A DNA stretch of 64,000 nt from an uncultured cyanobacterium (GTDB lineage Bacteria; Cyanobacteriota; Cyanobacteriia; CAKZMO01), in the NCBI GenBank assembly GCA_963719515.1, contig CAVRCJ010000001.1:301079-365078 (forward strand), read 5' to 3'. The notes beneath the pieces are model-generated. The model was not told the DNA's origin. It was given only the letters and a program-made list of their open reading frames with translations, and searched no databases. Positions 20,806 through 45,801 of this stretch are shown piece by piece. A program made the translations under genes and the position numbers. Positions within the stretch are counted from its first letter, which is position 1. Every line of letters starts with the position of its first letter.

Positions 20806-20838
20806 AGGATAAATCGTTGAAGTAGGGCTGATTACGGC

Positions 20839-21741: not shown

Positions 21742-22071
21742 GGTGGTGTTGAACAGGGGCAAAGAACGGTATGCGTAAAAATGGCTCAGTTGACGTTGCG
21801 AATCAAGGTGAACGCGGCCCAAAGACGCGGGTTGGGTGCTGCTCTATGGTGGTGAGCATGGTCTGCCGTAAGGCTTGGGCTTTGTCCACAGGGTTGTCGG
21901 GGTCTTGTCACAGGCAGTAGAACTGCGGTTGCCTACGGAACTTCGAGCTTTCAGCCGCTTGAACTGTCACAAGCAACCGCGCCAACGCAATAGATCTCAA
22001 CTAATTTTCCTTAGAAGAGGATACCGCAGCCACCCGACCCCTGGCGTCAGTGTTACAGAATTGTGAACAGC

Positions 22072-27666: not shown

Positions 27667-28653
27667 GGTGTATCAAGAATTAATTGCGGTTGCTGTCAGC
27701 GATCGCGGGTGGTTGGGCCGCGTTGAGCTGAAGCTGGCCTATGATTTCCATACCTGATTCTAAGGGAGAGGTATAGGCTATTGATGGCCCTTTGCGCCTA
27801 ACGCCGTTCCACGAATAGCTAACGAGGGTTATGAAAATGCGATCGCCTAATGGAATGAAGTGCTGGTCTGTGGCGGCTTGGATGTTGCCGGGGCTGCTGA
27901 TGGTGGCGGCTCCGGTCGTGGGGATGGCGGAGGTAAGGGTGCAGGGGGTGGAGACGGACCGTAAGGCGGAGGCGGACCGGCTGCTTCAGCAGGGCATTGA
28001 GGAGTTTAACGGCAGTCAGTTTCGTGAGGCGCTGCAGTTTTGGGAGCGATCGCTAGAGATTTATCGGGGGATAGGCGATCGCCGCGGGGAAGGCGCTGCC
28101 CTGGGCAACTTGGGCCTTGCCTACAGCAACCTAGGGCAATACCAACAGGCGATCGCCCTCTATGAGCAACACCTTGAAATCGCCCGAGAGATAGGCGATC
28201 GCCGCGGGGAAGGCGCTGCCCTGGGCAACTTGGGCAATGCCTACCGCAACCTAGGGCAATACCAAGAGGCGATCGCGCTCTATGAACAGTCCCTTGAGAT
28301 AGCCCGAGAGCTCGGCAACCGGCTCGCTGCAGGTAATGCCCTCGGCAACTTGGGTCTCGCTTATGACAACCTAGGGCAATACCAACAGGCGCTCGCATTC
28401 CATGAGCAGTCCCTTGAAATAGCCCGAGAGATTGGCGACCGCCGTGGGGAAGGCAATGCTCTGGGAAGCTTGGGCAATGCCTTCCTCCAACTAGGGCAAT
28501 ATCAACAAGCGATCACGCTCTATGAGCAGTACCTTGAAATTTTTCAAGAGATTGGTGACCGCCGAGGGGAAGGGGTCGCTCTCGGTAACTTGGGTCTCAT
28601 TTATGACAGCCTAGGGCAATATCAACAGGCGATTGCATCCTATCAGCAGTCCC

Positions 28654-29969
28654 CTTAGTGGTGCAGGGAAGTCCTGAAAGTATTGGTATACATAAAGTCT
28701 CAGCCTAGGACAGGGGTTAACGGTAGGGGTGTTCCATGAGAAGCTTAAGTTCCCCAACTCAAAGCTAAATCAATGGAAACACCCCTGCTTTATCGTCAGC
28801 TGATGGACCAACTACGTCAATGGGTCAACCCAAAAGACGAGCGTCACCTGCAAGGCGTTGCAGAAGCAGTCGCTGCTATCCTGCAATCTCAAAGCGCCTG
28901 TCTGGGGAAATGGGTCACCTACCTGAGCCATCGAAACTGCGAGGCTAGAGCACACATGGAGCGCCTAAGCTACTTGGTTCACAACCAGCACATCAGCGCT
29001 GAGCGCTTCTACGTACCGCTCCTACGCCATGCTCTGCAAGCATTTGACGGCAGCGAGATTACCCTAACTTTAGACACCAGCATGCTGTGGGAGCAGTTCT
29101 GTTTGGTGGAAGTCTGTCTGGTGTGGGGTGGGCGCTCGTTTGCCTTGGCTCAGGTGGTGCTAGAGCACAAGAGTGCTAGTGTCGCCTTCAAGGACTACAA
29201 ACACGTTCTTGAGGCAGCCAAAGCGCTGGTGCCCTCCGGTTGCGGGGTGACGCTGTTGGCTGACCGAGGCTTTGCCCACAGAGAACTGCTGGTCTGGCTC
29301 GAGGAGTGCCAGTGGCAGTGGGCGGTTCGGGTCAAGTGTGACATGCAGGTCCGCCTTGCTACTGGAGCGACTCGTTCGGTGCAATATCTATTCCCCCCAG
29401 AGCAGCAAGCTTATCTATTACACAATGTCACTGTCTTAGAGGACATTGAGGCGCACCTCGTCACAGGCCACCTTCCCAACGCCAGCGAGCCCTGGGCGGT
29501 TCTATCAAGCACGCCCCCCTCCCTGCAAACCTTCGCGCTCTACGGCAAGCGCTTTGGCGGCATAGAGCCGCACTTCAAAGACTACAAGTCGGCGGCCTTC
29601 AATGTTGTCGCTTCCGGTCTAAGGGATGCTCAAGCCCTGACGTGTCTATTCATGCTGTTGGACACGGCCTATCTGATTGCGCTGATTGTTGGCATGATCC
29701 TTGTTCAGAGCGGTCAACGCTCAAAGCTCGACTGGCATGGCGATAGGGGACTGAGTTTTCTGCAGCTTGGTCTGAGAAATATAGGACGGTGCTGCTACAG
29801 GCGAGTGCTACTGCCAACGCTGATTGCCCTGCCGCCCCAAAGTCCACCTAAAGCCTGTGCCTCGAGGCGCAAGCGAGCCGCTTTAGACTGCCAAATTGAG
29901 TTCTCAAGGGTGGTCGTCTTCTCATGATGAGTCCGCTTAAGCCTCCTTTGAGATTTCTGCACCACTAAG
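28654..29969 (+). mobile_element. Insertion sequence (IS4-superfamily-like) within CHAT-A
   Basis: TIR cttagtggtgcag / ctgcaccactaag; 10-bp TSD cagcagtccc at 28644-28653 and 29970-29979. Confidence 0.92.
28773..29927 (+). CDS. DDE transposase
   Basis: LTLDTS, LLADRGF and YGKRFGGIEPHFKDYKS motifs. Confidence 0.9.
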   Translation: METPLLYRQLMDQLRQWVNPKDERHLQGVAEAVAAILQSQSACLGKWVTYLSHRNCEARAHMERLSYLVHNQHISAERFYVPLLRHALQAFDGSEITLTLDTSMLWEQFCLVEVCLVWGGRSFALAQVVLEHKSASVAFKDYKHVLEAAKALVPSGCGVTLLADRGFAHRELLVWLEECQWQWAVRVKCDMQVRLATGATRSVQYLFPPEQQAYLLHNVTVLEDIEAHLVTGHLPNASEPWAVLSSTPPSLQTFALYGKRFGGIEPHFKDYKSAAFNVVASGLRDAQALTCLFMLLDTAYLIALIVGMILVQSGQRSKLDWHGDRGLSFLQLGLRNIGRCCYRRVLLPTLIALPPQSPPKACASRRKRAALDCQIEFSRVVVFS

Positions 29970-32258
29970 CAGCAGTCCCTTAAAATAGCCCGAGAGATTG
30001 GTGACCGCCGCGGGGAAGGTAATGCCCTGGGTAACTTGGGCAGTACCCTTGGCAACCTAGGACAATACAAAGAGGCGATCGCACTCTATGAGCAACAGCT
30101 TGAAATTTTTCAAGAGATAGGTGACCGCCAAGGGGAAGGGGTTACCTTTGGCAACTTGGGCATTGCTTACAGTAACCTAGGGCAATATCAACAAGCGATC
30201 GCGCTCCTTGAGCAGCGCCTTGAGATAGCCCGAGAGATTGGCGACCGCCAAGGGGAAGGCAATGCCATCGGCAGCTTGGGTAACGCTTACCTCCGACTAG
30301 GACAATACCAACAGGGGATCGCATTTCATAAGCAATACCTTGAGATAGCCCGAGAGATTGGCGACCGCCAAGGGGAAGGCAACGCCCTCGGCAACTTAGG
30401 CAATGCTTACCTTCAGGTAGGGCAATACCAACAGGCCATCGCTTCTTATCAGCAGGCTCTAGCCATCCACCAAGACATCGGCGATCGCGCTGCCGTAGGG
30501 CTTGGGTTTAGCAACATCGGCAACCTCTTCGCCACGCAAGACCAACCTCAACTCGCCATCCTCTTCCTCAAACAGTCCGTCAACGTCCGCGAATCTATAC
30601 GCAACGACATCCGCCAGCTCCCCACCGACCAACAGCAATCCTTTACCGACACCGTCGCGGACACCTACCGCCAGCTAGCCGACCTCCTCCTCCAAGAGAA
30701 CCGAATCCTAGAAGCCCAGCGCGTCCTCGACCTCCTCAAAGTCCAAGAGCTAGGCGACTACCTCGGCACCGTCCGCAGCAGCCCCAACACCCAAACCGGC
30801 ATCGACCTCACCACACCCGAACGCCCCGTCCGCGATCGCCAGCAGGCCATCACCAACCGAGCGATCGCCGTGGGCCAGCAAATCGCCCAGCTGCGGCAGA
30901 TAGACGAAGGGCGATCGCCCCAGCAGCAGGCGCAGCTCATTGAACTCGAAGCCGAACAGGACGACATCCGCGCCGAATTCTTCGCCTTTATCGACGGGCC
31001 AGAGGTGCAGGCCCTGGTTGACGCTCTCAGCCGCGACCAGGCTAAGCAAGATCTAGTGGCCAACCTAGAGGAGCTAGTCAACCTGCAAAACAACCTCAAA
31101 GACCTGAACCAAAACGCGGTCCTCATCTATCCCCTAGTCCTAGAAGATCGCCTAGAGCTAGTGCTGGTCACTCCCTTCAGCGAACCCACCCGCTACCCCA
31201 TCACCGTCCCTCGGGAAGAGCTGAACCAGGCCATCGTCCAGTTTCGCCAAGCTTTAGAAGATCCCACCAGCAACCCGCTGCCCGCCGCCCAGCAGCTCTA
31301 CGACTGGCTGATTGCTCCCATGGCCGATGACCTAGCCGCCATTGACGCTCAAACCCTGCTCTACGCCCCCGATAGCATCCTGCGCTACATCCCCCTCGCC
31401 GCCCTGCACAACGGCGACAGATGGCTAGCAGAAGATTACCGCGTCAACCACATCACCGCCGCCAGCCTGGGCAACCTCAACCTGCGCCCCGACTCAGAAC
31501 TCGACATCCTAGCCGCCGCCTTCAGCGACGGGTTCCACAGCGTTGCCGTGGGAGAGCGCAATCTCGACTTTGACGGCCTCCCCTTCGCCGGGCAGGAGGT
31601 AGAGAACTTGGCCAAGGCCTTCCCCGGCACCACAACTCTGGTCAACGACGACTTCAGCCTTGATGATACTGTCCTGCTCATGGATGATCACACCGTGGTC
31701 CACCTGGCCACCCACGCCGCCTTTGTCCAGGGCACCCCCCAAGATTCCTTCATCCTATTCGGCAACGGCGATCGCATTACCCTGGAGGAAATGAAGCAGT
31801 GGCGGGGCCGCTTCAACGCTATCGACCTAATTGTGCTCAGCGCCTGTGAAACAGGGCTAGGAGACGATGGCTCCGGCACCGGGGAAGAGATTCTCGGCTT
31901 TGGCTACCTGATGCAGCAGGCGGGGGCCGCAGCGGCGATCGCCTCTCTATGGCAAGTGAGCGACGGCGGCACCCAAGCGCTGATGAACGCCTTTTACACC
32001 GCGCTGAGCAACGGCTACAGCAAAGCAGAGGCCCTGCAGCGATCGCAGCGGGCGTTGATTGAGGGTGACCTCTCGGTTGTGGGGGAACAGCGCGGCACCA
32101 TTGAGCTGATCAGCACGGCAACAGGGGAGCCGATTAGCGCTGATGACCTCAGCCATCCATACTACTGGGCACCGTTCATCCTCATCGGCAACGGGCTGTA
32201 GGATGTGCAGGATACCCATGCCCTACTAAAGAGCAGTCACTAGCGCAGATCCTCTGGG

Positions 32259-33011: not shown

Positions 33012-35394
33012 GACTTTTTCCTGGTGAGTGCTGGAAAGCTGTAAAAGACTATCGTCAGAACCGGAAGCACAACGGGCAGCAAAACTGCCGTAGAAACGAA
33101 GAGTTGAAAGCTGATGCCGGTGCAAAGAGCGGTGCCTGCCGCAAAGATGAGCCACCGCGATCGCCGACTAAGCTGTTCTAGAGAGGATGATCCCGGCTTA
33201 GAAAACCGCTGGCGCTGAACATATACCGTCAACGCTTTACCGATAAGAGCCATCAACCCAATCATCCAGAGATTGGGAACCGAGACAACGTACCGTTGAT
33301 CAAAGTAATGGCTGAGCTGGTAAGCGTGGATCTCACCGCCCGTGAGAATTTTGCGATTGTCTGATGAGGTCAGCTGTCGCCGCCAGTAGGCAACAGCGGC
33401 GGGCGTCGGTTGACTATCTTGGTTTGCCTTGTGAATTCCAGCCTCGCGATACCCTCCTGCGGCAATCATGACAACCTGATGCTCAAGGGATTGCAGTCGT
33501 TCAGGGGTTTCGTTGCTAGAATCAGCTGCAAGCAGCTCCCACGCCGAAATCCGCTCATAGACTTGGGGGGGGGAACTGAGAAATCAACTATTGGATGAAG
33601 CCACATCTGCCGAAGTCGATAGCCAATCTCCGAAATCAGCATGGAGCGAGGGGGGGCTAGTTGAGAGACATGACGCGGGTGATAGCGTGTCAGCTCATAG
33701 CTAAAGGGCTGAGGTTCAGTCGGGTCCGCTGACAGCAATTTGAGGTAGTAGGTGTTTCCCAAGCGGCGGTAGCGGATATCGCCGTGGATGCTTTCCTCAA
33801 ACTGGGCCAGTTCTGGCAGAGCAAATAGCCAAGCATCATTGAGCGATGGAGTCGCGGCAAAAACAACGTCAACATCTCGATCAGCAGCGGCCTGAAGCGA
33901 TAGGGCCAGTTGCGCATCGTTATCTTGGGGGTAGTCCAAAAGGTAATCCAATCCAATCACTTGGGCATTGAGTGACACTAGCTGATCCACTATCTGCGCC
34001 AAATAGCCGCGATCCATCACCTTCGGATCGCTGATGTTTGCCTTCGCGATCGAGGTGTCATCGATTTGCACCAGCAGCACGGGCGGCACTTGGTCCGCTG
34101 TGAACTGCTGAGTTGCGTGGCGATAAAAGGCCTGCGCCACCATCCGCCGCTCCAATAGCCAGCTCTGCACCGGCAACTGCCAGCTCAGCGCCGCCAATAG
34201 CCCCACCGCGATCGCCTCCCGACGGCTAGGTATCAGTTTCTGCAGCCGCTGCCGCCAGCCGTAGGGCTGAAGCTGAAATAGCGGGGCGCTGGGGCGGCAA
34301 AAGAGGGAGGGGACCAAATCTGCAGAAGGATAGGTCAGTTCGGCCTTACTTTTGAGAAACTCGGTGGCGGCAATCAGAGCGGTGTGGACATCCGCGTAGG
34401 CAGCGAGGCTCTGTAAGAACTGCGGCAAAAAGAGCTGGGCCACCCGGTTGTGGATCGGTTCGCGCATCACCGCCACTTGGTTCAGCCCCAGGCCAATGAG
34501 GGCGGCGGCGATATCCATGCCGTTGCAGGAATTGAACAGAGCAAACTGCAGCCCCCGCTGCTGGGCTTTCTCCAGGTGGGGCTGCAGTTCACTAAGGGCA
34601 ATAGCCGTATTGGGCGCAATCGCCAGCTCTCCCCCTAGCCCTGGCTTCTCGTTGCTGTGCCCCGCAAAAAAGAGGATGTCCCACCCCTGCTCGGCGGCGA
34701 TCGCCGCGACGATATCGCGCTTGAGGGTCTCGATGTCAGCCCCCGGCTGCCAGCCCACAAAGCGGATCTCAGCCAGAGAGGCCAGCGACTGTACCGCCTT
34801 GCGGTCTTCCGCAAAATTGAGGCCGGTATCATCCCCCATAATCGCCAAAATGCGAAGACGACGGCGTGAAGACTGGGGCACAGCCGCCGCAGCGCGAATA
34901 TTGTCTGGGGTACGGGCAATGCGGATGCTGCCCGTGGCGGCAAACTCGCGACCAATCTCCCACGCCTCCCACGGCAGGCGGGCGATGTCATCTGTCGAGC
35001 AAGTCAGGAAAATATTGACGGCGGCATCGGCGCGGCTTGCTTTCGCAATCTCAGAGCGGATATCGTGCAGCTCTGGCGATCGCAGCCACTGGTGGAAGTC
35101 GTGCAGCAGCCGCGACTTTGCCTCGACAAGCCGCATCCGCCGGTCATTGGGTGTGGCAATCACGCTACCGCCGCCAACGGCCTTGCCGCGCAGCCCATCC
35201 CCAGCCTCTGGTGGGTCTAGAGAAATCGGCAGCGTTTGATAAAAGCTGAGGTAAGTTCGCTGCCAATCGCGATAGCGCTGCATCAGCACGTCTGGAAAGG
35301 TGACCGGGACGCTCAACTGCCGTTCTCCGTCCCACCTTAAGGTAAACAGGCAGTCTTGCCCCACGTGCCGTACCAAAAGTCGAAAGTTAGTCAT
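33008..35394 (-). pseudogene. Membrane CHAT-CHASE2 protein, frameshifted at a G9 tract (33565-33573)
   Basis: N-terminal CHAT (LPWEAW, FFAGHS, FNSCNG), TM helix, CHASE2 (LLVQIDD, VIGLDYLLD); adding one base joins DFSVPPP-QVYERISAWELL to the 33008-33469 ORF with its TM helices. Confidence 0.85.
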
Positions 35395-36706
35395 GACGAA
35401 TATAGGTAAAAGGCGGTAAGGTGATTTCCGCGCCGTTGGTTAAATTAACCGTGACCTGAAACTGCTCGCGCCACTCGCCAACGACCTGGGAGAACAAGTA
35501 GGCGTCAGGCCCTGTTTCCGATAGGGTCTGCTGGTCTAGCACCTGTATATCGTCGCTGATCCTGAGGGTAATGCCAGCGGGTAGCTCTCGGTTGGGCTGT
35601 GGCCCGAGCAGCAGCAGTAGGCACCAAGCCTGGTCCGATGCGGTGGAGAGATCCCAGGTGATGGCGTAGAGGCGCACCGACACCGTTTCCCAGGTGAGGT
35701 CGCGGTAGGCGGCGCGGGCCTGGGAGGGAATCGGGGTACCGCTTTGGGATATCGTGGTCACGATGTCCTCGAACTGCTCCACGGGCGATCGCGCATACCG
35801 CATTGAGGTTGCCTCCTGGAGCCGCGATAGGGGCGGCAGCAATCGCCAGTCTTGGTCTTGAGGAATTTGTACTGAGTCTTGGAACCACTGCCTGACGTTG
35901 ACGACAGCCTGCGCCACTGGGCCGGGTGATGGACTAGGCAATAGCGATCGCCCTAGCTCAGGCTGGGTGAGGACTACCGCTGCCTGCTCCCAGGTGAGCA
36001 GCTTCCAAATAGGCACCTGAGATTGAAGTCGACCTGCGAGAGTGGATAGGGTCTCTTGCACCTGAGCTACAGAGGGCAGCGTAGGGGGCGCGATCGCCAC
36101 TGAGCCTGACGCCACTGAGCCTGACGCCAGAGCTTCGGGCGGCAGGCAGCGCAGGTAAAGCAGCAAGGCATCGGGGTCAAGATCAAACCAGGTTCGGGGG
36201 ATGGTGTAAGTCCAGTCGCGATGAGCGGTCAATTCTTCTGGCAGCGCCGCGATATGGGCGCGCATCTGGTCATAGCGCAGGCATCCCTGCACATCGACCT
36301 GTCCGACTTCCTCCCGCACGTCGACTAGCACCAATAGCTGTGGCACAAACGCGGCTAGCTCTAAAGCAGCTCGGGGAATGGTAACGGCCTCGTCGTCCAG
36401 GCTCCCAGCGGGAATGAGACAGAGGCGAAAGCCGTTAACCTCTAGGCTGCACACGGCGCTCAGCAGCCCCGCCACCTCAGGCCGCGTCACCGAACAGGCG
36501 GGGTTTTCTACGGCGATGCCCCGCTCAGATAGCCACTGCTGAAATCCCACCCAGGCGATCGCATTGAGATGAGCTTGCCAGCCCTCGGCGGGACGGAGGG
36601 TTTCAGTTTGTGCAACCGCTCGCTCTAGATCTTCTTCTGACAAAACAATTAGGTTGGGAGACTGTGTCTCGGCTTCGAGAGCCAGCGAATCTTCAGTAAG
36701 TGTCAT
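35387..36706 (-). CDS. DUF1822-like cytoplasmic protein
   Basis: LEVNGFRLCLIP, VTIPRAALE, VREEVGQV, LLLYLRCL, VVNVRQWF, LPAGITLRISD; stop overlaps the CHAT-CHASE2 start. Confidence 0.75.
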   Translation of the reverse strand: MTLTEDSLALEAETQSPNLIVLSEEDLERAVAQTETLRPAEGWQAHLNAIAWVGFQQWLSERGIAVENPACSVTRPEVAGLLSAVCSLEVNGFRLCLIPAGSLDDEAVTIPRAALELAAFVPQLLVLVDVREEVGQVDVQGCLRYDQMRAHIAALPEELTAHRDWTYTIPRTWFDLDPDALLLYLRCLPPEALASGSVASGSVAIAPPTLPSVAQVQETLSTLAGRLQSQVPIWKLLTWEQAAVVLTQPELGRSLLPSPSPGPVAQAVVNVRQWFQDSVQIPQDQDWRLLPPLSRLQEATSMRYARSPVEQFEDIVTTISQSGTPIPSQARAAYRDLTWETVSVRLYAITWDLSTASDQAWCLLLLLGPQPNRELPAGITLRISDDIQVLDQQTLSETGPDAYLFSQVVGEWREQFQVTVNLTNGAEITLPPFTYIRHD

Positions 36707-36725
36707 GATATTTAATCTCCTAATC

Positions 36726-38090
36726 TTAAATTCTGGTGTCTAAATATCGGCACAGGTGGCGGGCAAATCGACTTTTCAGGGGACCGTTGCGGCGAACGCT
36801 AGTTTCCACTTCGGTTTCGTGAATCAGGTCTGTAATCTCTTCGTCTAGCGCCTGAGCGAGGCGCTGGTCGAGATCCTGTAGATTAGCGGCATTGGTGAAG
36901 GTTTTTGCCAGCAGCAGGATGCGATCGCGCAGCAGCTGCAGCATCTGGTGCCGCACATCGGTCCGCAGGGGCTTTAGCTTCAGCAAAGCGGTCACCTGAT
37001 CTTGACGGATATAGCCAATTTTGGGGGCAATGTCTTTCATGGCTTCTCCCAGGCAGTGAAACAGATGCAGCCCCTTGAGAAACCGCTGGGGGCGATCGCC
37101 CTTCCGCCGTCCTAGAAAGCTGACCCGCTGCTCAACGACGGTTTTTAGGGCGTCGTCTAGGCTAGAGAGAAACTGCTGCCGGTATTCGCCCAGAAAGACG
37201 TCGGCTTGGACGTCATCTGAGCTGGCATCGGTGGCGGAGAGACTATTTAGCGTTTTGGCTTGGTCGGGGTTGTCTAAAGAATCGGTGGGCAGCACCTTGC
37301 TGCGGTTGTGGATGCGCAGGGCGCGAAGCTGCTGGGCCAGGCTCTGCAGCTGCTGCATGACCTGGTTAGCCGATAGCGACAGCGAATACTCGTCGGCCAG
37401 ATATGCGGCAATGCGCTGCAGCTGGTCAGTGCTTGGGGGGGCGCACCGTCCTACCCGCTGCTTTTGCTTCTGCCGCCAGCGATCGCTCCGGTAGACGGCA
37501 TTATAGCCTTCTAGGAGGGCGCTAGCCTGGGACATTTCGACGGCGCTCAGCAGATGAAACATCCCTGACGCCTCAAGCTGAGAGGGTTTGGTATCGTTTA
37601 ATATAGCCCAATCGCTGACCAAATAAACGCCGTGCTCTAGGAGGACGGCATTAACCTCGCTGTGCTGGCGAACAAGCCGAATAGTCCAGGTGCTGAGGCT
37701 GCTCTGCTGTGGGTCGAAACTGTCGAGAACTTTGCTGGCGAATGACTGGTACGACGATTGGGGGCGATCGCGGATTAGGGAAGTGTCGTCCAGCACCAGA
37801 TGCAGCAGGTCGTAGCGGCTGACGCCGTGGCGCTTGCCAAAGCCCGCTTCTAGGTCTTGGCAAGCGTAGACAATCTGGTGAGAGATGAAGCATCGCAAAC
37901 AGGCTTCTGCAGCTTCCGCCTGATGGGCTTTCAGCCACCGCTGGATGTCGCGGTGGGGCAGCTCCTGGCGCGATATGCGATCGCTGCCCTCTCGCTCAAG
38001 CCAGGTGCGGGTGCTGTCAATGGTTCTACGCTGTGGGGTTCCAGCGGCGGTGAGATGCAGAAAGGTCCAGTATTGAGAGATGTCATCCAT
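36726..38090 (-). CDS. Divergent sigma-70-like / HetZ-related transcription factor
   Basis: Region-2-like FDPQQSSLSTWTIRLV; C-terminal HTH-like MKDIAPKIGYIRQDQVTALLK; AGGA RBS before ATG 38090. Confidence 0.6.
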   Translation of the reverse strand: MDDISQYWTFLHLTAAGTPQRRTIDSTRTWLEREGSDRISRQELPHRDIQRWLKAHQAEAAEACLRCFISHQIVYACQDLEAGFGKRHGVSRYDLLHLVLDDTSLIRDRPQSSYQSFASKVLDSFDPQQSSLSTWTIRLVRQHSEVNAVLLEHGVYLVSDWAILNDTKPSQLEASGMFHLLSAVEMSQASALLEGYNAVYRSDRWRQKQKQRVGRCAPPSTDQLQRIAAYLADEYSLSLSANQVMQQLQSLAQQLRALRIHNRSKVLPTDSLDNPDQAKTLNSLSATDASSDDVQADVFLGEYRQQFLSSLDDALKTVVEQRVSFLGRRKGDRPQRFLKGLHLFHCLGEAMKDIAPKIGYIRQDQVTALLKLKPLRTDVRHQMLQLLRDRILLLAKTFTNAANLQDLDQRLAQALDEEITDLIHETEVETSVRRNGPLKSRFARHLCRYLDTRI

Positions 38091-38277
38091 TATCAGTCCT
38101 CTAGGTCGTTGAGCGGCAGGGCACGACTCCGCCACTAGACTACAGAATTCTTCACTAATGGGAAATAGCTCTGAGCATTTTGAACCTATGGAAGTTTTGA
38201 GGTGCTGCCTGAGGTTCTGAATTCTGAATGGGTTGGGACGCAGTTTGATGCGCCCATACTACTTGTGGATTGTGGAA

Positions 38278-39726
38278 TTAAAGGCCGTTGCCGATGAGGA
38301 TAAAGGGTGCCCAGTAGTAGGGGTGGGCTAAGGGATTTCGCTCAAGGCTTGCGCCTTCTATGACAGTGCCTCTCAGGCTTGGAGAGACATCTTCGCGCTT
38401 GATCATCGAAAGCTGCGCCTGCCGCAGGGCCGCGCCGTAGGAACTGCCCTCCTGCAGCGCTCGATAAAACGCTTCCATAAACGCAGGCGTGCTGCCGTCG
38501 CTGATGGCCCATAGAGAGGCGATCGCCGCTCTGGCACCAGCCTGCTGCGCTAAATAGCCAAAGCCCAAAATTTCTTCGCCGTTGTCAAAACCGCCTATCC
38601 CCGTTTCACAGGCGCTCAGCACGACTAAATCCACGTTTTGCAGGGACCAGTTACGCATATCGGCGAGGGTGACGCGATCGCCATTGCCCATCAAGATAAA
38701 GGAGTCCTGCGGGGAGCCGGGGACAAAGACGGAGTTAGAAGCTAGGTGCAGGACGGTGTAGTTGTTCATTTGAGACCGGAGCGCCGCCGTCGTGAACGCC
38801 TCGTTGAGCAACACCGTCGTTTCAGGCACGATCGCAGCGATCGCCTCCACTTCAGCGCCGGTTCCAGGCAGGCCCGTCAGCGAAACTGGGCGATCGCCAA
38901 GTTCAATGTCGTATGTGCCTTCCGTGTGGGCTGCGGCTAAGACCCTCAGAGGTGCCTGGGGCGATCGCTCTAAATCGGTCAGGGTTGCCGCTGTGATACG
39001 GTTGACGATAAAGCGCTCTGTGAGCCAGCTTTCCCCATCGTGGAGTGCGGCAAGGGGAATATAGCGCAGCGCGCCGTCTGGGGCGTAGAGCAGCGCTTCG
39101 GTGCCCGCAGCGGTGAGGGCTACCTCCATGGGCTGGATGAGCCACTGGTAGAGCTGCTCAGCGACGGGGCGCGGGTCGCTGCTGGGGTCGCCCAAGCTTT
39201 GGCGGAACGCTGCGACAGCTTGGCTGACCTCAGCGCGAGAAACCGGTACGGTGTAGGTGAGCGGCGACGCGTCGGGGGTGAGCAGAACAAGCTCGATGCG
39301 GTCTTCTAGCAGCAGGGGGTAGAAGATCGCCGCTGGCCGCTCTAAGCGCTGTAAGTTATCTTGCAGGGCGGCGAGATCTTCGAGGGGAAGGGTCGCCTGT
39401 CGCTGCCGGGACGCTTCAAGCTGCTGGACTTCTGGGCTGTCGAGGAACTCACGAAACTGATGAACGAACTGCCGCTGGAGAATGCGTAGGTCTTCGAGCC
39501 GCTGCTGTTGCTCAGGAGTGCGCTCGTCTAGTGGAATGCGCTCTAAGTGACGGCGATCGCGGCCCGCTTCGATGGCGGTGGTGTACTGCTCAGTTAACTG
39601 TGACTCAGCCCCCCGAAGTTCGATGCCCTGTTCTGTTTGTGCAGATTCGGCAGGGGCGATCGCGGTGGGGTTGAGCAGGGCGATCGCGCTTAGGAGGGCG
39701 GTGAGGGTGGGTTTGATAGATTTCAT
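38278..39726 (-). CDS. Secreted TPR-less CHAT-domain protein (CHAT-B), catalytic His replaced by Asn
   Basis: Signal MKSIKPTLTALLSAIALL; VLHLASNSVF where paralogs have HLATH; LSACETG retained. Confidence 0.85.
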   Translation of the reverse strand: MKSIKPTLTALLSAIALLNPTAIAPAESAQTEQGIELRGAESQLTEQYTTAIEAGRDRRHLERIPLDERTPEQQQRLEDLRILQRQFVHQFREFLDSPEVQQLEASRQRQATLPLEDLAALQDNLQRLERPAAIFYPLLLEDRIELVLLTPDASPLTYTVPVSRAEVSQAVAAFRQSLGDPSSDPRPVAEQLYQWLIQPMEVALTAAGTEALLYAPDGALRYIPLAALHDGESWLTERFIVNRITAATLTDLERSPQAPLRVLAAAHTEGTYDIELGDRPVSLTGLPGTGAEVEAIAAIVPETTVLLNEAFTTAALRSQMNNYTVLHLASNSVFVPGSPQDSFILMGNGDRVTLADMRNWSLQNVDLVVLSACETGIGGFDNGEEILGFGYLAQQAGARAAIASLWAISDGSTPAFMEAFYRALQEGSSYGAALRQAQLSMIKREDVSPSLRGTVIEGASLERNPLAHPYYWAPFILIGNGL

Positions 39727-39832
39727 GGTGATTATGGGGTTGGGCACAGCATGCTGTGCCGGTACGTTTGGGGATGGTTTGGATGGGTTGGGGCACAGCA
39801 TGCTGCGCCCGTACGACTTGTGGATTGTAGAA

Positions 39833-42800
39833 TTAAAGGCCGTTGCCGATGAGGATGAAGGGTGCCCAGTAGTGGGGATGGCTGAGGCCGGTCGAGCTAG
39901 CTCTTGCGCCTGTGGGGACGATGGTGGCGGGTCCGCCGCCTTGCGGAGCTGCGATCGCATCTGCGGTTCCATCATCTTCGCTGGAGGTGGCTTCGCCCTG
40001 GGCAATCAGGGTTTGCTGGGCGAGCTGTAGGGCTCTAGACTTAGATTCACCCTGCTGCAGCGCATCGTAAAAGGCGGTCATCAGCACTTGGGTACCCTGA
40101 TCGTTTACCTGCCACAGCGAAGCCAACGTTGCCCTGGCCCCAGCCCGCTGAAACTGATAGCCCAGCCCCAAAATCTCTTCCCCGTTGCCAAAGCCGCCCA
40201 GCCCCGTTTCGCAGGCGCTCAGCACGACTAAATCGACGTTTTGCAGGGACCAGTCGCGCACGTCAGCTAGGGTAGGGCGATCGCCGTTGCCAAACAGTAT
40301 GAAGGAGTCTTCGGGAACGCCGGGGACGAAGGCGGCGTGGGTAGCAAAGTGGATGATGTCGTGCTCGTTGAGGCGCGATCGCACTGCAGCGAGGCTAAAG
40401 TCTTGGTCGAGGAAGGGGGTGATGTTGGGCAGGCTGGCGATTAGGGTTTCGACTTCTATTCCGGCAAAGGGCAAACCCTGAAAGTCGACGCTGCGCTGCC
40501 CCACCTGCACAGGGTAGCTGAGAGTCTCGTCGGCGAAGGCTCCGGCCAGGACGCTGGGCGATTTGGCGGGCTGGGCGGCAAGATCGGTGAGCGATCGCGC
40601 GGTGATGTTGTTGACGGCGTAGCGCTGGGCCAGCCAGGTCTCGCCGTCGTGGAGGGCCGCGAGGGGAACGTAGCGCAGCTGTCCGTCGGGGGCGTAGATG
40701 ATGGTGTCGATGTCGAGGTTGGCGAGGTCGTCTTCTAAGGGTTCAACCAGCCACTGGTAGAGCTGATGGGCGGGGGTGATGACGTCGCTATTGGGGTTTT
40801 CGAGAGCCTGCCGGAAGGCGAGGATGGCGCGGTTGAGGTCTTCTCGGGTGACGTTCTCGACGGTGCGCCGCAGGGGGGGAGAGTCGGGGGTGGTGAGCAC
40901 GAGTTCGAGCCGGTCGTCTAGGATGAGCGGGTAGAGCAGGACGGCGTTGAGCTGGCCCAGGTCGTTCCGCAGGGCGGCGATATCGGCGGGGTTGAGGGTT
41001 TGCTGGCGGGTGGTGGTGCTGAGCTGGCTGATGAGAGTAAGGATTTCGTCGCTGTCGATGAAGTTGTTGAACTGGCGGGTCAGCTCTTGCTCTAGGTCAA
41101 CGAGTTCGCGGATGCGGGCTTGCTGAGCGGGGGTGCGATCGCTCTCTGGGGTTTGGCGGAGCTGGGTGAGTTCTTGGCCGAGTTCGATGGCTTGCTGCTG
41201 GCGGGCGTTGAAGCGCTCCAGGATTTCTTGCTCGGGTTGCCAGTATTCGACGCCGCTGGCGGTGGTGGCGTTGCCGCGAACACCGCGCAGGTAGTCATCG
41301 AGTTCTTGGACTTTGAGCAGGTCTAAGACTTGCTGTGCTTCTAGGATGCGGTTTTGTTGGAGGAGGAGGTCGGCGAGTTTGCGGTAGGTGCTTTCAATAG
41401 TGTCGGTGAAGGACTGCTGTTGCTCGGTGGGTAAGTCACGCAAGCCGTCGCGGATGTCTTCGCGAACATTGACGGACTGCTTGAGAAAGAGGATGGCGAG
41501 CTGGGGATGGTTCTGGTCGGTAAGGAGGTTGCCGATATTGCTGAGCCAGGTTCCTTGAGCAGCGCGATCGCCAATATCTTGGTGAATGGCTAGAGCTTGC
41601 TGGTAGGAAGCGATCGCCTGTTGGTATTGCCCCAGGTTGCGGTAAGCGAGGCCCAAATTGCCCAGGGCGGCACCTTCCCCGCGCCTGTCCCCTATCTCTT
41701 GGGCTATCTCAAGGTGCTGCTCATAGAAGGCGATCGCCTGTTGGTATTGCCCCAGGTTGAGGTAAGCGATGCCCAAGCCGCCCAGGGCATTGCCTTCCCC
41801 GCGCCGGTCCCCTATCTCTCGGACAATGTCAAGCTGCTGCTCATAGAACGCGATCGCCTGTTGGTATTGCCCCAGGTTGTCGTAAGCGATGCCTAAGTTG
41901 CCCAGGGCATTGCCTTCCCCGCGCCGGTCCCCTATCTCTCGGGCTATCTCAAGTCGTTGCTCATAGAGTGCGATCGCCTGCTGATATTGCCCTAGATTGT
42001 CGTAAGCGCTGCCCAAGTTGCCCAGGGCATTGCCTTCCCCGCGCCGGTCCCCTATCTCTCGGACAATGTCAAGCTGCTGCTCATAGAAGGCGATCGCCTC
42101 TTGGTATTGCCCTAGGTTGCGGTAGGCACTGCCCAAGTTGCCGAGGGCAACGCCTTCCCCTTGTCGGTCGCCAATCTCTCGGGCGATTTCAAGGTGCTGC
42201 TCATAGAAGGCGATCGCCTGTTGGTATCGCCCTAGCCTGAGGTAAGTAGTGCCCAAGTTACCGAGGGCAACGCCTTCCCCTTGTCGGTCGCCAATCTCTC
42301 GGGCGATTTCAAGGTGCTGCTCATAGAAGGCGATCGCCTCTTGGTATTGCCCTAGGTTGCTGTAGGCACTGCCCAAGTTGCCCAGGGCATTGCCTTCCCC
42401 GCGCCGGTCGCCAATCTCTCGGGCGATTTCAAGGTGCTGCTCATAGAAGGCGATCGCCTCTTGGTATTGCCCTAGGTTGCGGTAGGCACTGCCCAAGTTG
42501 CCCAGGGCATTGCCTTCCCCGCGCCGGTCCCCTATCTCTCGGGCGATTTCAAGTCTTTGCTCATAGAGTGCGATCGCCTCTTGGTATTGCCCTAGGTTGC
42601 GGTAGGCACTGCCCAAGTTGCCCAGGGCATTGCCTTCCCCGCGCCGGTTGCCTATCTCTCGGACAATGTCAAGGGATTGCTCATAGAATGCGATCGCCTG
42701 TTGGTATTGCCCCAGGTTGTTGTATGTAAGGCCCAAATTGCCCAGGGCATTGCCTTCCCCTTGCCGGTCCCCTATCTTCCGATAAATCTCTAACGCCTGC

Positions 42801-43351
42801 TCCCACGACTGCAGCGCCTCGCGAAACTGACTCACATTGAACTGCTCAATCCCCTCCTGGAACAGCCGATCGGCCTCTGCCTTGCGATCATCCTCAACTG
42901 GTGACTCCGCCTCACTGCCCTGAGATTGTCCTTCTGTGGCCACCTCCCGCACCATCAGCCGATACCGCCCCCGATTCTCCGCATCAGCCGCATTAGCAAT
43001 CACCATGTAGGTGCCATCCTCCGGCAGCGTCACCACCAGGCCCGCATTCGTCGTCGTTTCGTCCAAATTGTTGTTCTGAGCGATCGCCTCCCCCTGCGGG
43101 TCTAGCAGCAGCAGGTAGGTGTCAAACGCCTCGCTCTCCATCACAATCTGCAAGGTCTGGCCCGCTCGCCCTTCCACAGGATAGGCATCATAGAGGCTGT
43201 CATCGTCTGGAACAACGCGATCGCCCTCCTCCAGCACCCCTTCCACCTGCAAAATCGGCTCCGCCTCCTGCGCCAGCACCCCGCCCGCCACCATCCCCTC
43301 TACCACAAGCGCCACTGCCGCTATGCCAATCCACGTGATGAGGAAACGCAT
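39833..43351 (-). CDS. Secreted PPC-TPR-CHAT protease (CHAT-C)
   Basis: Signal ending VLA; PPC-like FDTYLLLLDPQG; 10 x 40-aa TPRs; HFATH and LSACETG dyad. Confidence 0.92.
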   Translation of the reverse strand: MRFLITWIGIAAVALVVEGMVAGGVLAQEAEPILQVEGVLEEGDRVVPDDDSLYDAYPVEGRAGQTLQIVMESEAFDTYLLLLDPQGEAIAQNNNLDETTTNAGLVVTLPEDGTYMVIANAADAENRGRYRLMVREVATEGQSQGSEAESPVEDDRKAEADRLFQEGIEQFNVSQFREALQSWEQALEIYRKIGDRQGEGNALGNLGLTYNNLGQYQQAIAFYEQSLDIVREIGNRRGEGNALGNLGSAYRNLGQYQEAIALYEQRLEIAREIGDRRGEGNALGNLGSAYRNLGQYQEAIAFYEQHLEIAREIGDRRGEGNALGNLGSAYSNLGQYQEAIAFYEQHLEIAREIGDRQGEGVALGNLGTTYLRLGRYQQAIAFYEQHLEIAREIGDRQGEGVALGNLGSAYRNLGQYQEAIAFYEQQLDIVREIGDRRGEGNALGNLGSAYDNLGQYQQAIALYEQRLEIAREIGDRRGEGNALGNLGIAYDNLGQYQQAIAFYEQQLDIVREIGDRRGEGNALGGLGIAYLNLGQYQQAIAFYEQHLEIAQEIGDRRGEGAALGNLGLAYRNLGQYQQAIASYQQALAIHQDIGDRAAQGTWLSNIGNLLTDQNHPQLAILFLKQSVNVREDIRDGLRDLPTEQQQSFTDTIESTYRKLADLLLQQNRILEAQQVLDLLKVQELDDYLRGVRGNATTASGVEYWQPEQEILERFNARQQQAIELGQELTQLRQTPESDRTPAQQARIRELVDLEQELTRQFNNFIDSDEILTLISQLSTTTRQQTLNPADIAALRNDLGQLNAVLLYPLILDDRLELVLTTPDSPPLRRTVENVTREDLNRAILAFRQALENPNSDVITPAHQLYQWLVEPLEDDLANLDIDTIIYAPDGQLRYVPLAALHDGETWLAQRYAVNNITARSLTDLAAQPAKSPSVLAGAFADETLSYPVQVGQRSVDFQGLPFAGIEVETLIASLPNITPFLDQDFSLAAVRSRLNEHDIIHFATHAAFVPGVPEDSFILFGNGDRPTLADVRDWSLQNVDLVVLSACETGLGGFGNGEEILGLGYQFQRAGARATLASLWQVNDQGTQVLMTAFYDALQQGESKSRALQLAQQTLIAQGEATSSEDDGTADAIAAPQGGGPATIVPTGARASSTGLSHPHYWAPFILIGNGL
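41581..42780 (-). repeat. Ten near-identical 120-bp tandem repeats encoding TPR units
   Basis: Exact 120-nt periodicity visible in the sequence. Confidence 0.95.
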
Positions 43352-43578
43352 CAAATTCTCTCCGCCAAATGACTCCAGTAGTCTATACCGCTAGGCCGAA
43401 TAGAGGTATGGAAATTAACAGTGTTTGATGGTGGCCCTCAGACCCCTGGAATCTAGCAGCTTTTCTCCAACACCACCCGTATTTTGTAGAGATTCCAGCG
43501 GTCCACTTCAAGCGCCATACCCTTTGACACCTCAGAGCTACTTAGCCTATGACTAAGACGTGTTGAGGAGAAAAAACA

Positions 43579-45720
43579 ATGAAGCGACCTACGGGAACCC
43601 CGCTACTAGGCGCGATCGCCCTATCCACTGGCCTGCTCACCCTGCTCGCCGCCCACCGCCAGCCCGCCACCGCCCAGTTCCAGCCCGCCCCCCAGGACTC
43701 CTATTCCTTCTTCGGCCAGCAGATTCCGCTGACGACCCAGTCCGACGTCGTTGCCGTCGCCTTTGCGCCACAGTCCGGCACGCGGGGCGTTGGGCAGCCG
43801 GCCTACGCTCAGCTTGAGGCCGACCTTCGGGGAGAGCCTACAGGAACGCGGGGCGGTCGCTCCCCCTCCCCCTTGCGCTTCGACGTGTGGGTCAGTCCCT
43901 TAGGCGATCGCTACGCCTTGGTCACCACTGAAGACGGGGAAACCGTCCGTCAGGCGATCGCCCAGCGTCCCTACGTCGAGGCAACTCTGCCCGTGTTGAC
44001 GGTGGGCAGTGGGGAGGACGCTGCGCAAGTGGTGCTACCCAACGAGATTTTGCTCAGCCTGGAGCCGGATTTGTCGGGCAGCGAGCGGCAGGCGCTGCTC
44101 AATCGCTACGGCCTAGAGGTGGTGAGGCCCCTACAGTTTGCCCGCGATCGCTACCTCGTGCGATCGCGGCGCGAGGTGGGGCTAGCGGTGCTGGAGGTGG
44201 CCAATCGCCTCCACGGCGCTGTGGGAGTTGAGTCCGCCACGCCCAACTTCATTCAGTCGGTGCCCTACCGGGTGCAGGCGCAGGATATCGAAGACGCGAC
44301 GTTGAGCGATCGCCCCAACGCCGCCGCCCAGCTCCAGCAGCTTCTGGGCTCATTCCCCAAAATCGACACCGCTTTCCCCAGCAGCCTGTCTCCCCTCGCC
44401 TGGCACCTCGACAGTACGCCTCAGCGCGGCAGACTGCAGCCCCGCACCGACATCCGCGCCACGGAAGCCTGGGGCGAGGGCAACGGCGGCGAGGGCGTAG
44501 TGGTAGCCGTTATCGACAGCCTTATCCAGTGGGACCACCCCGACCTAGCGCAAAACCTCTACTCCACCCAAGATCACCCCGACCGCTACCCCGGCGAAGA
44601 GTACGGCTGGGATTTCACCAGCGAGGCCAACTGCCCAAACGCCCAGCCCGACTGCATTCCCGGCGACCCCGATACCCGCATCAGCGCCGCCGAGGTGGAC
44701 CTGCTACGCCCCCACCTGCAAAACACCTTCCAGCTTTCAGACGCCGCCCTGCTGGAGACCTACAGCGGTTTGGCAGGGCGGATCAAGGAGCGCTATCCCA
44801 GCCTCTCCAGCGCCCGCACCGCTAGCCTCATCCGCAACCTCATTCGTGGTGATATCTCGTCCGAGTTCCACGGCACCTGGTCCGCCGGGGTAGTGGCTGC
44901 CCATCCCCAGGGCGGGGAGGGGGCGATTGGGGTTGCACCTATGGCCAAGATTTTGCCGGTGCGGGTATTTGGCATTGAGGGGGAAATCACCACAGCGCGG
45001 CTGATTGAAGCGGTGGGCTATGCCGCCGACCGAGGCGCGGATGTAATCAACATGAGCTTGGGTAGCGCGGTACCCGACCAGGCGTTTGTTGACCAGATTT
45101 TCGCCGTTTTAGACGAGAACCCCGAGCTTGTGATTGTCGCTTCGGCGGGCAACGACAGCGTCGACGGCGTGGGCTTTCCCGCCGCGACGCCGGGGGTGCT
45201 CTCGGTGGGGGCGACCAATCTGGAGGGCCAGCGCACTTACTACAGCAGCTACGGCGGGCGGCTCGACGTGGTGGCCCCCGGTGGGGAGACAAATCTGTTC
45301 CAGCAGGGCGGCATTCTCACCACGGGGGGCACTTGGGTCGATGGGTTTTGGAGCGCTTTAGAGGCCCCGCCCTACGGCTGGGGTGCGGCCCTAGACCCGT
45401 TAGGTAAGTACGTCCAGGTTCAGGGCACCTCCTTCTCGGCTCCGGCGGTTTCCGGGGTGGTGGCGCTGATGAAGGGGGTAAACCCGTCGCTGGAGCGCGA
45501 TCGCCTGCTGGCGGTTTTGCGGGAGACGGCGAGCTATGAGGGCCTGACGCTCACCCGCGCGGACCTAAACCGCTACCGACTGCAGCGGGAGGTAGGTCTG
45601 ACGCTGATGGAGGACCGGGTATCGGGCCTATTTCCGTTCCCGGAGCCGATTTCGCCAGAGGAGTATTTCTTTGGTGCGGGGTTGGTGGACGCGGAAGCGG
45701 CAGTGGAGGCGGTGCGGTAG
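43579..45720 (+). CDS. Secreted S8 subtilisin-like protease
   Basis: Signal peptide; VAVIDS, FHGTWSAG, SAGND and QGTSFSAP catalytic motifs. Confidence 0.92.
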   Translation: MKRPTGTPLLGAIALSTGLLTLLAAHRQPATAQFQPAPQDSYSFFGQQIPLTTQSDVVAVAFAPQSGTRGVGQPAYAQLEADLRGEPTGTRGGRSPSPLRFDVWVSPLGDRYALVTTEDGETVRQAIAQRPYVEATLPVLTVGSGEDAAQVVLPNEILLSLEPDLSGSERQALLNRYGLEVVRPLQFARDRYLVRSRREVGLAVLEVANRLHGAVGVESATPNFIQSVPYRVQAQDIEDATLSDRPNAAAQLQQLLGSFPKIDTAFPSSLSPLAWHLDSTPQRGRLQPRTDIRATEAWGEGNGGEGVVVAVIDSLIQWDHPDLAQNLYSTQDHPDRYPGEEYGWDFTSEANCPNAQPDCIPGDPDTRISAAEVDLLRPHLQNTFQLSDAALLETYSGLAGRIKERYPSLSSARTASLIRNLIRGDISSEFHGTWSAGVVAAHPQGGEGAIGVAPMAKILPVRVFGIEGEITTARLIEAVGYAADRGADVINMSLGSAVPDQAFVDQIFAVLDENPELVIVASAGNDSVDGVGFPAATPGVLSVGATNLEGQRTYYSSYGGRLDVVAPGGETNLFQQGGILTTGGTWVDGFWSALEAPPYGWGAALDPLGKYVQVQGTSFSAPAVSGVVALMKGVNPSLERDRLLAVLRETASYEGLTLTRADLNRYRLQREVGLTLMEDRVSGLFPFPEPISPEEYFFGAGLVDAEAAVEAVR

Positions 45721-45801
45721 GGATGAGGGGCGATCGCTTTCCCATACCTTCTCTTGGCCGAGAGGTATACACTGCTATGTGTCTCGGTCGGAGCAATTCT
45801 C

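Follow-up and report, generated by a model that had tools for sequence, protein, structure and literature searches.

The 64,000-nucleotide stretch under study (hereafter the window), which belongs to contig CAVRCJ010000001.1 of an uncultured cyanobacterium (assembly GCA_963719515.1), carries on its minus strand a gene for a tetratricopeptide repeat (TPR)-CHAT protein, in which ten closely similar 40-residue TPR units precede a caspase-like protease domain of the CHAT family. The protein encoded by this gene, referred to below as the target protein, is composed of a signal-like N-terminus, a PPC domain, the TPR array, a linker and the CHAT domain, in this order, and these parts account for its full length. 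The likely start of the gene is the ATG codon at position 43351, which gives a protein of 1172 aa, and an identical 1172-aa protein (P0001) is present in the protein collection that was searched; this only database copy of the target protein derives from the same single contig.

The match of the C-terminal part to the CHAT family reaches 209.5 bits against a cut-off of 24 and covers positions 3-289 of the 289-position Pfam profile. Both catalytic motifs of this family are present, i.e., HFATHA for the histidine and LSACETG for the cysteine, with the invariant His codons at positions 40349-40351 and 40337-40339 and the Cys codon at 40211-40213 (minus strand). The corresponding residues H1001, H1005 and C1047 are invariant across 70 aligned sequences, and, as far as these motifs allow a judgement, the His/Cys dyad of the target CHAT domain is intact. 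The linker that precedes this domain was shown by alignment to be highly similar to that of other CHAT genes in the window. At the other end of the protein, a heuristic based on hydrophobicity and a small-x-small motif detected a hydrophobic 12-mer (Kyte-Doolittle value 2.43) with a basic residue ahead of it and V-L-A behind it; this crude signal-peptide heuristic was passed by the target protein and by 85 of 120 homologues. Together with the N-terminal position of the PPC domain, the signal-like segment suggests, on a heuristic basis, that the target protein is apparently exported. The repeat region returned Pfam matches to TPR_12 (E 4.3e-98) and TPR_1 (E 2.6e-78, in 10 stretches), while no NACHT/NB-ARC or other NTPase domain was found in the target protein among the best 25 of the 30 Pfam families matched or in scans of aa 1-153 and 634-985. 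PADLOC 2.0 and NCBIfam returned generic TPR, subtilase and caspase matches only, with no NCBIfam match at the curated cut-off, and a megablast search of positions 36726-46000 against a plasmid collection gave no match. A promoter and terminator scan of positions 38100-45800 found fewer sites than in shuffled sequences and gave no operon information.

A preliminary description of this DNA had reported a 120-bp TPR array of ten units, which is borne out here, the in-frame coordinates lying 5 nt from the originally given 41581-42780. Tandem Repeats Finder delimited the array to positions 41610-42777, with a period of 120, 9.7 copies, 88% matches, 0% indels and a score of 1587. Eleven 'IG[DN]R' anchors follow one another in frame at a spacing of exactly 40 residues, and the array is in frame throughout, with no indel over 1200 nt. 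The previously reported consensus was found to be exact, as were the residue sets at its hypervariable positions, i.e., 9 (N/V/A), 16 (L/S/T/I), 19 (N/R/S/L/D) and 34 (S/R/H/Q/A), and the multi-base codon changes were likewise reproduced (AAT/GTT/GCC at codon 9; CAC/CAG/CGA/AGA/TCC/GCT at codon 34). The statement that the DNA is nearly identical between units was overstated, since the mean pairwise nucleotide identity is 84.2% (69-98%): only units 1-3 reach 92-98% with one another, units 2 and 3 being 97.5% identical (3 of 120 nt different), and most units differ from one another by 10-25%. At the amino-acid level the identity among units has a mean of 81% and a median of 80%, with units 1-3 (120 aa) being 90-97.5% identical and 18 of the 45 unit pairs reaching at least 85%. 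Twenty-three of the 40 unit positions are invariant, while 38.5% of the amino-acid differences counted over all unit pairs fall at positions 9, 16, 19 and 34; of the 29 extra residue states, 13 belong to the four positions that vary most, a concentration that random placement matched in 420 of 20000 trials. The variation is thus concentrated at these four codons as had been proposed, although codons 5, 17, 26, 30, 36 and 38 vary too.

To place this array among its relatives, several samples of the TPR-CHAT family were compared. Of 8000 candidates scored in a full-length search, 6917 were relatives, and essentially all of these are TPR-CHAT proteins of cyanobacteria. In a collection of 5.8 billion proteins, the best non-self match to the target protein was 75% identical and lay in the C-terminal part, and the array of the closest relative is divergent, with a median nucleotide identity of 0.46. 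Species-representative genomes were scanned as well and contributed 387 relatives; 78 loci were retained, none of them from the source genome. When the window was added to these loci, 62 arrays with six or more in-register units were obtained, 55 of them in ORFs (open reading frames) that possess the His as well as the Cys motif. Ranked by median nucleotide identity, the target array comes third, and a value of 0.70 is reached by 25 arrays of the 62. The frequency of such arrays was estimated in a sample selected by the C-terminal domain (n=97), which is unbiased for repeats: a median unit identity of at least 0.7 was found in 8 of these 97 relatives and one of at least 0.8 in 4 of them. High internal conservation is therefore a recurrent minority state in the TPR-CHAT family.

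The location of the variable positions on the TPR fold was derived from sequence register and from published structures of relatives. Since TPR_1 profile positions 3-32 align to aa 563-592 of the target protein, a unit position equals the canonical TPR position plus 7, and codons 9, 16, 19 and 20 correspond to canonical positions 2, 9, 12 and 13. The most variable TPR positions have been reported to be canonical 2, 5, 9, 12, 13, 33 and 34, all located on the concave ligand-binding face (Magliery & Regan, PMC1261162), and the protein HOP is reported in the same source to bind its peptides via canonical positions 2, 5, 6, 9, 12 and 13. The best solved sequence relatives of the array are the 40-residue TPRs of LGN/GPSM2/Pins (E 1e-64; PDB 3sf4, 4wng, 3ro2 and 4a1s), and the Asn of the Leu-Gly-Asn triplet of LGN/Pins aligns with unit position 16. 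Peptides of Insc and NuMA are described as lying extended in the inner groove of LGN/Pins, anchored by this Asn (PMC3438535). Positions 9, 16 and 19 would accordingly lie on the concave ligand-binding face, in helix A. The earlier expectation that the variable sites map to the concave groove was in this way upheld for three of the four sites, while position 34, being canonical 27, would fall in helix B. In 105 other proteins, positions 16, 9, 19, 20, 38 and 5 show the highest within-array entropy, and the entropy profile correlates with that of the target array (Spearman 0.63), in a homologue sample that is biased to consensus-like arrays because its query words came from the repeats. Position 34 carries S/R/H/Q/A in the target array and H/S/Y/Q/R/A in a paralogous array in the same window (see below), with an entropy of 2.12 in the target array versus 0.87 in other proteins; it is an extra hypervariable site that is specific to the unit family of this genome.

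Selection at these codons was assessed in 24 other high-identity arrays by dividing codon-wise dN, the nonsynonymous rate, by array-wide dS, the synonymous rate, with bootstrapping over 11 taxon groups. The pooled ratio (omega) was 1.53 at codon 9 (1.27-1.96), 1.99 at codon 16 (1.39-2.59) and 1.89 at codon 19 (1.38-2.24), and none of 2000 group bootstraps fell at or below 1 for these three codons. The remaining values were 1.56 for codon 38 (0.85-2.39), 0.84 for codon 20, 0.63 for position 36 and 0.47 for position 12. The excess at codons 9, 16 and 19 also holds against dS at four-fold sites and as raw pN/pS, and dN exceeds dS in 18, 21 and 22 of the 24 arrays, respectively. The signal is not created by the detection method, because the hidden Markov model (HMM) of the unit is permissive at position 34, yet no excess was found there. 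The per-codon dN/dS comparison that the preliminary description had called for thus gave values of 1.5-2.0 at positions 9, 16 and 19 across the 24 other arrays, while in the target array alone the synonymous rate is exceeded at codons 19 and 34 only, an excess that is lost after correction for 40 tests. By parsimony count, these two codons each underwent 9 nonsynonymous changes, with ratios of 3.1 (P=0.003) and 2.95 (P=0.004), respectively, while the a-priori set of codons 9, 16 and 19 underwent 16 nonsynonymous changes versus 9.1 expected (P=0.023). The indication of selection within the target array alone is suggestive only.

With regard to the origin of the units, NG86 estimates among those of the target array gave dS 0.39, dN 0.12 and omega 0.31. 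Unit dS is 0.73 in the paralogue and 2.79, i.e., saturated, in the array of a neighbouring 1922-aa TPR-CHAT protein, which served as a built-in contrast. Because dS in the target array is far from saturation, the high identity of its units reflects recent common DNA ancestry or homogenisation; protein-level selection alone, converging on a consensus, was ruled out on the same ground. Adjacent units are 0.876 identical versus a permuted mean of 0.842 (P=0.0012), and a single tree cannot accommodate 193 of the 351 pairs of informative sites. In a PHI-like test, 0 of 3000 permutations were at or below the observed value at w=3, with P=0.043 at w=5 and P=0.24 at w=10. Mosaic units and neighbours that resemble each other are the footprint of unequal crossing-over or local duplication combined with short-tract gene conversion.

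The paralogous TPR-CHAT gene, located 11 kb from the target gene, belongs to the same unit family and is split by an insertion sequence (IS). It lacks a PPC domain and shares with the target gene a cap ('DRKAEADRL') and the last unit. The IS breaks the gene inside a TPR unit and possesses perfect terminal inverted repeats of 13 nt, at positions 28654-28666 and 29957-29969, as well as a short flanking direct duplication (CAGCAGTCCC-like), on account of which the insertion looks recent. The mean identity of target to paralogue units is 79%, with a maximum of 92%. In a unit tree, which was read without support values and is based on only 120 nt and thus poorly resolved, the units of the two genes intermix and stand apart from the high-identity arrays of other genomes, each of these grouping by itself. 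The linker and CHAT regions of the two genes are 55% identical (dS 0.93, dN 0.41), compared to dS 0.61 and dN 0.16 for their units. Since the units are thus closer to one another than the linker and CHAT regions, this comparison favours an exchange of units between the two loci.

Turnover of whole units was observed among close relatives. Array indels of exactly 40 or 80 aa were found in all six close pairs examined. In 13 of 15 close pairs, identity is lower in the units than in the remainder of the protein, for example 88.4% versus 98.9% in one pair and 59.2% versus 91.6% in another. The mismatch rate in close pairs is approximately 50% at positions 19, 9 and 16, which together hold 18.2% of in-unit mismatches versus 7.5% expected. 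The unit shuffling proposed earlier is in agreement with the mosaic units and the similar neighbours of the target array and with the gain and loss of whole units in its relatives.

Features of the TPR-CHAT gene and of its IS-split paralogue (positions refer to the window).
Feature	Position	Strand	Remarks
Whole TPR-CHAT gene	39833..43354	minus	1173 aa from TTG 43354 (ORF list)
Signal-peptide-like N-terminus	43271..43351	minus	aa 2-28; basic residue, hydrophobic core, V-L-A; putative, from a crude heuristic
PPC (bacterial pre-peptidase C-terminal type) beta domain	43001..43192	minus	PF04151, E 2.2e-6, 28.9 bits, cut-off 25.9
N-terminal cap unit, divergent, TPR-like	42776..42895	minus	aa 154-193; in register with the array
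Ten high-identity 40-codon TPR units	41576..42775	minus	aa 194-593; hypervariable codons 9, 16, 19, 34
Degenerate eleventh unit / C-terminal cap	41456..41575	minus	aa 594-633
Conserved linker between array and CHAT domain	40775..41455	minus	aa 634-860; alignment, nearly invariant columns
CHAT caspase-like protease domain	39842..40774	minus	aa 861-1171; PF12770, E 9.2e-62
IS-split paralogous TPR-CHAT gene, same unit family	27831..32201	plus	blastn 79-82% over ~600 nt
Eight full units of the paralogue	28071-28550 and 29997-30476	plus	
Insertion sequence in the paralogue	28654-29969		1316 bp; DDE transposase 28773-29927

Taken together, these data make it probable that the target protein is an exported caspase-like CHAT protease with a young TPR solenoid, which evolves in concert as a substrate- or ligand-recognition module. 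The TPR array would fold into a superhelix whose inner groove, lined by positions 9, 16, 19 and possibly 20 of successive units, would clamp an extended polypeptide as in LGN/Pins, and the string of residues at these positions would set which polypeptide is bound. Binding would present the polypeptide to the C-terminal CHAT active site, or would switch the protease on, and the protein would work in the periplasm or outside the cell. Duplication, loss and exchange of units, combined with selection for diversity at the contact positions, could then re-tune specificity quickly. The idea of a reshufflable ligand-specificity code on a secreted protease, which had been put forward in the preliminary description, gains from the CHAT match (E 9e-62) with its motifs, from the signal-like N-terminus and the PPC domain, from the predicted concave location of variable positions, from omega above 1 in the family and from the mosaic units; position 34 did not lend it support, nor did single codons of the target array after correction for 40 tests. 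That interpretation, which is supported in part, appears to be largely right, and the target protein would evolve under the regime of the fungal NLR repeats with which it was compared, without an NTPase and on a putatively exported CHAT protease.

Several observations weigh against this reading. Full-length, C-terminus-only and species-representative contig searches returned no strain or orthologue copy of the target protein, i.e., nothing above 75% identity outside the repeats, and reshuffling of the target array is consequently deduced and not observed. Stronger constraint on the units could contribute to the difference in divergence between the units and the linker and CHAT regions. Position 34 lies off the classical groove, where a change may alter repeat packing instead of ligand contact, and outside this genome its omega is 0.45 (0.24-0.83), with only 3 of the 24 arrays hypervariable at this position. 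Position 16 of the target array is never Asn (S/T/I/L), and the Asn ladder of the LGN type is absent. In the target array, codons 9 and 16 change roughly as fast as synonymous sites (ratios 1.28 and 0.98), the result for the a-priori set of codons 9, 16 and 19 weakens to P=0.072 when the paralogue is added, and the codon results for the target array fail correction for 40 tests, while recombination violates the tree assumption on which they depend; for the last two reasons, the case for selection rests on the family and not on the target locus alone. Furthermore, omega above 1 between paralogous units may reflect old differences that have been preserved against conversion, and not ongoing novelty.

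Some of these observations also enter into a neutral explanation, according to which the array was recently amplified and is homogenised by slippage or unequal crossing-over, and the variable codons represent the least constrained TPR surface without forming a code. The near-synonymous rates at target codons 9 and 16 and the overall omega of 0.31 are in line with this explanation, as are the published finding that positions 9, 16 and 19 are among the most variable in TPRs generally (PMC1261162) and the recurrence of high-identity arrays as a minority (8 of 97), which stochastic amplification would give. However, neutral sites cannot exceed the synonymous rate, as the pooled omega of codons 9, 16 and 19 does in every bootstrap, the exposed helix-B positions 36 and 12 stay below 1, and the arrays of close relatives outpace the rest of the protein in 13 of 15 pairs; purely neutral dynamics are considered unlikely. 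It might also be argued that the role of the solenoid in the envelope is to provide the protease with a spacer, a spring or a means of self-assembly, the identity of its units being due to selection for a stable fold. The units are indeed near to designed consensus TPRs, engineered or consensus TPR proteins being among the best PDB matches, and unit number varies freely among relatives, as expected if only length counts. Selection on the protein only would nevertheless have saturated synonymous sites, as is the case in the neighbouring 1922-aa protein and not in the target array, and omega above 1 at groove positions is unexpected for a spacer, which renders such a structural role improbable.

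Two technical or mechanistic alternatives carry still less weight. Reads of several similar TPR genes, or of one repeat, could have been collapsed or chimerised during assembly, and it counts against the favoured interpretation of the array that units 2 and 3 differ at 3 of 120 nt, such that a short-read assembly could mis-count or mis-order them; the paralogue, 11 kb distant, holds another array of this unit family, and the sole database copy stems from the same contig. Against an artefact speak the indel-free reading frame over 1200 nt, the 10-25% difference between most units, which is enough to anchor reads, the unique flanks and the equivalent arrays in 24 other genomes, finished-quality chromosomes included, and it is judged very improbable. 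Targeted hypermutation by a diversity-generating retroelement (DGR) may be brought to mind by the Asn codons AAT/AAC at positions 9, 13 and 20 and by the reported occurrence, in multicellular bacteria, of DGR-diversified sensors with CHAT or other protease partners (PMC10907252). Pfam scans of the window, covering 30 of the 31 listed ORFs of at least 200 aa (the one left out, 34448..35239 on the plus strand, overlaps a CHASE2-CHAT gene on the opposite strand), gave no reverse-transcriptase match. The codon changes, moreover, are not restricted to adenine (e.g., CGC/CTC/GAC at codon 19), and the variable codons recur in every unit and not in one pair of variable and template repeat. A DGR origin was rejected owing to the lack of a reverse-transcriptase match in the scanned ORFs and of adenine specificity, and hardly any probability is assigned to it.

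The genomic surroundings of the target gene are rich in related genes. A CHAT domain was detected in seven genes of the window, including the IS-split gene and one with an N-terminal leucine-rich repeat (LRR) region, and the window is, judging from predicted domains and N-termini, an island of exported-looking recognition and protease genes. Downstream of the target gene, and in the same orientation, come four genes: a small CHAT gene, one for a 469-aa protein without family assignment, a DUF1822 gene and a CHASE2-CHAT gene. The product of the first of these (38278-39726, minus strand), directly downstream of the target gene, has a signal-like N-terminus and no TPRs, and in its CHAT domain 'LHLASNSVF' replaces the invariant 'H.ATHA', one of the two invariant His residues being changed to Asn with the Cys motif intact; this protein may be an inactive or decoy protease. 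The following trio (33466-38135, minus strand) comprises the 469-aa protein without a family match, the DUF1822 protein and the CHAT-CHASE2 membrane protein, the ORFs of the last two overlapping by 8 nt. At least two members of this trio occur near CHAT genes in 6 of the 78 loci, and in loci L018, L019, L027 and L073 they lie on the same strand as, and downstream of, the matched CHAT gene.

Divergent from the target gene lies a gene for an S8 subtilase (43579-45720), with the gene for the 1922-aa TPR-CHAT protein (45754-51522, plus strand) directly downstream of it; the latter protein contains at least 25 in-register 40-residue units with a median nucleotide identity of 0.56. The subtilase was rejected as an obligate partner, being found near a CHAT gene in only 2 of 78 loci. 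Further away, neighbouring genes (18523-21822, minus strand) encode a trypsin-like peptidase and a C14 caspase, the latter with a DUF4384 domain and an N-terminus of twin-arginine-like character (RRHFLQ); among the 78 CHAT loci, homologues of the caspase occur in 12 and those of the peptidase in 9. In the middle of the CHAT island, one ORF (53097-55967, minus strand) unusually combines a haem peroxidase domain of the animal type (E 1e-139) with RTX calcium-binding repeats. The G+C content is 0.43 at 56-58 kb and 62-64 kb versus approximately 0.57 elsewhere in the window; these stretches hold a TPR-CHAT gene (56913-59693) and, at 62-64 kb, a gene for an LRR and pentapeptide-repeat protein (62679-63827), with an LRR-TPR-CHAT gene (59710-62661) between them, and they may have been horizontally acquired. 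Mobile genes are represented by two IS605 OrfB/TnpB-type genes and two further DDE transposase genes, at 2768-3709 (minus strand), 6325-7626 (plus strand), 23482-24849 (minus strand) and 51620-52927 (plus strand), and this richness in mobile elements may favour ectopic recombination among the TPR-CHAT genes.

A far-reaching extension, which is offered as a speculation with little expectation that it holds in full, is that such proteins constitute an extracytoplasmic, NTPase-free and innate-immune-like family of receptor-proteases in multicellular cyanobacteria. The shuffled TPR array would then act as a combinatorial sensor of foreign or non-kin envelope or secreted proteins, e.g., those of phages, competitors, grazers or other strains, and binding would turn on or aim the CHAT protease outside the cytoplasm. 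The CHASE2-CHAT, DUF1822 and 469-aa proteins would relay the signal inward, resulting in, for example, cell death or kin discrimination, and the window would represent an 'immune island'.

The wider interest of the locus derives from the fact that repeats of high internal conservation (HIC) whose contact residues are hypervariable typify the allorecognition and immune receptors of fungi, while bacterial HIC repeats have so far been noted only in passing, for NLR-like NTPases. The present analysis adds the occurrence of this regime on an apparently exported TPR-CHAT protease and its recurrence across filamentous cyanobacteria, with young units, indels of whole units, exchange between loci and dN/dS above 1 at predicted groove positions as shared features. 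No description of the HIC regime in TPR-CHAT proteins was found in the literature searched, most subscription journals being outside its scope. In filamentous cyanobacteria, few gene families are as expanded and as poorly understood as TPR-CHAT, and the string of three residues per unit would provide a concrete route to a ligand search and to testing whether the proteins function in defence, in kin recognition or in remodelling of the envelope. As natural TPR scaffolds that are close to the consensus and have defined variable positions, the units are furthermore of relevance to the engineering of binders.

Among known systems, the HIC TPR, WD and ANK repeats of fungal NLR proteins (Podospora nwd/het; Dyrka et al. 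2014, PMC4986451) are reported to consist of near-copy units that evolve in concert and are exchanged between loci, as in the target gene, and to vary in repeat number with few positively selected positions per unit, those of TPRs lying on the concave face, as is observed or predicted for the family of the target protein. The target protein differs from these cytoplasmic proteins, as they are portrayed in that source, in that it is bacterial and apparently exported, lacks a NACHT/NB-ARC domain, and carries its repeats N-terminal to the effector, which is a CHAT domain. Moreover, the HIC criterion given there, above 85% identity over at least 100 aa, exceeds the mean amino-acid identity of 81% in the target array, which lies below it except for units 1-3 and 6. 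The HIC TPR and WD repeats of bacterial NLR-like proteins (Dyrka et al. 2020, bioRxiv 10.1101/2020.01.06.895854, which cites Marold 2015 and Hu 2017) likewise stem from filamentous or multicellular bacteria, their TPR units are stated to be 80-90% identical, and rapid diversification has been proposed for them; these proteins are, according to the same source, STAND NTPases, whereas the target protein has nothing between sensor and protease and has a predicted signal peptide.

LGN/GPSM2/Pins, as presented in PMC3438535, shares with the target protein the 40-residue unit and comprises its best solved sequence relatives, but is a eukaryotic scaffold without a protease, with divergent, unshuffled units and with Asn at position 16. 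Csx29, the TPR-CHAT protein of type III-E CRISPR systems (Craspase), also combines TPRs and CHAT in one polypeptide, and non-catalytic binding is described as controlling its protease; it is cytoplasmic and docked on Cas7-11, and no high-identity array is described for it. Csx29 was not among the PDB sequence matches to the target protein at E 1e-5, no Cas7-11 or other Cas proteins were found by the Pfam scans of 30 of the 31 listed ORFs of at least 200 aa except for the IS605 TnpB-type domains, and Rfam matches were limited to a tRNA. Finally, the DGR-diversified sensors mentioned above resemble the target protein in that, as reported in PMC10907252, hypervariable sensors are combined with CHAT, trypsin or S8 effectors in multicellular bacteria, some of them predicted to be periplasmic or secreted. 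In those sensors a reverse transcriptase acts on one lectin fold, whereas diversity in the target protein would be achieved by turnover of units together with selection at a few positions per unit.

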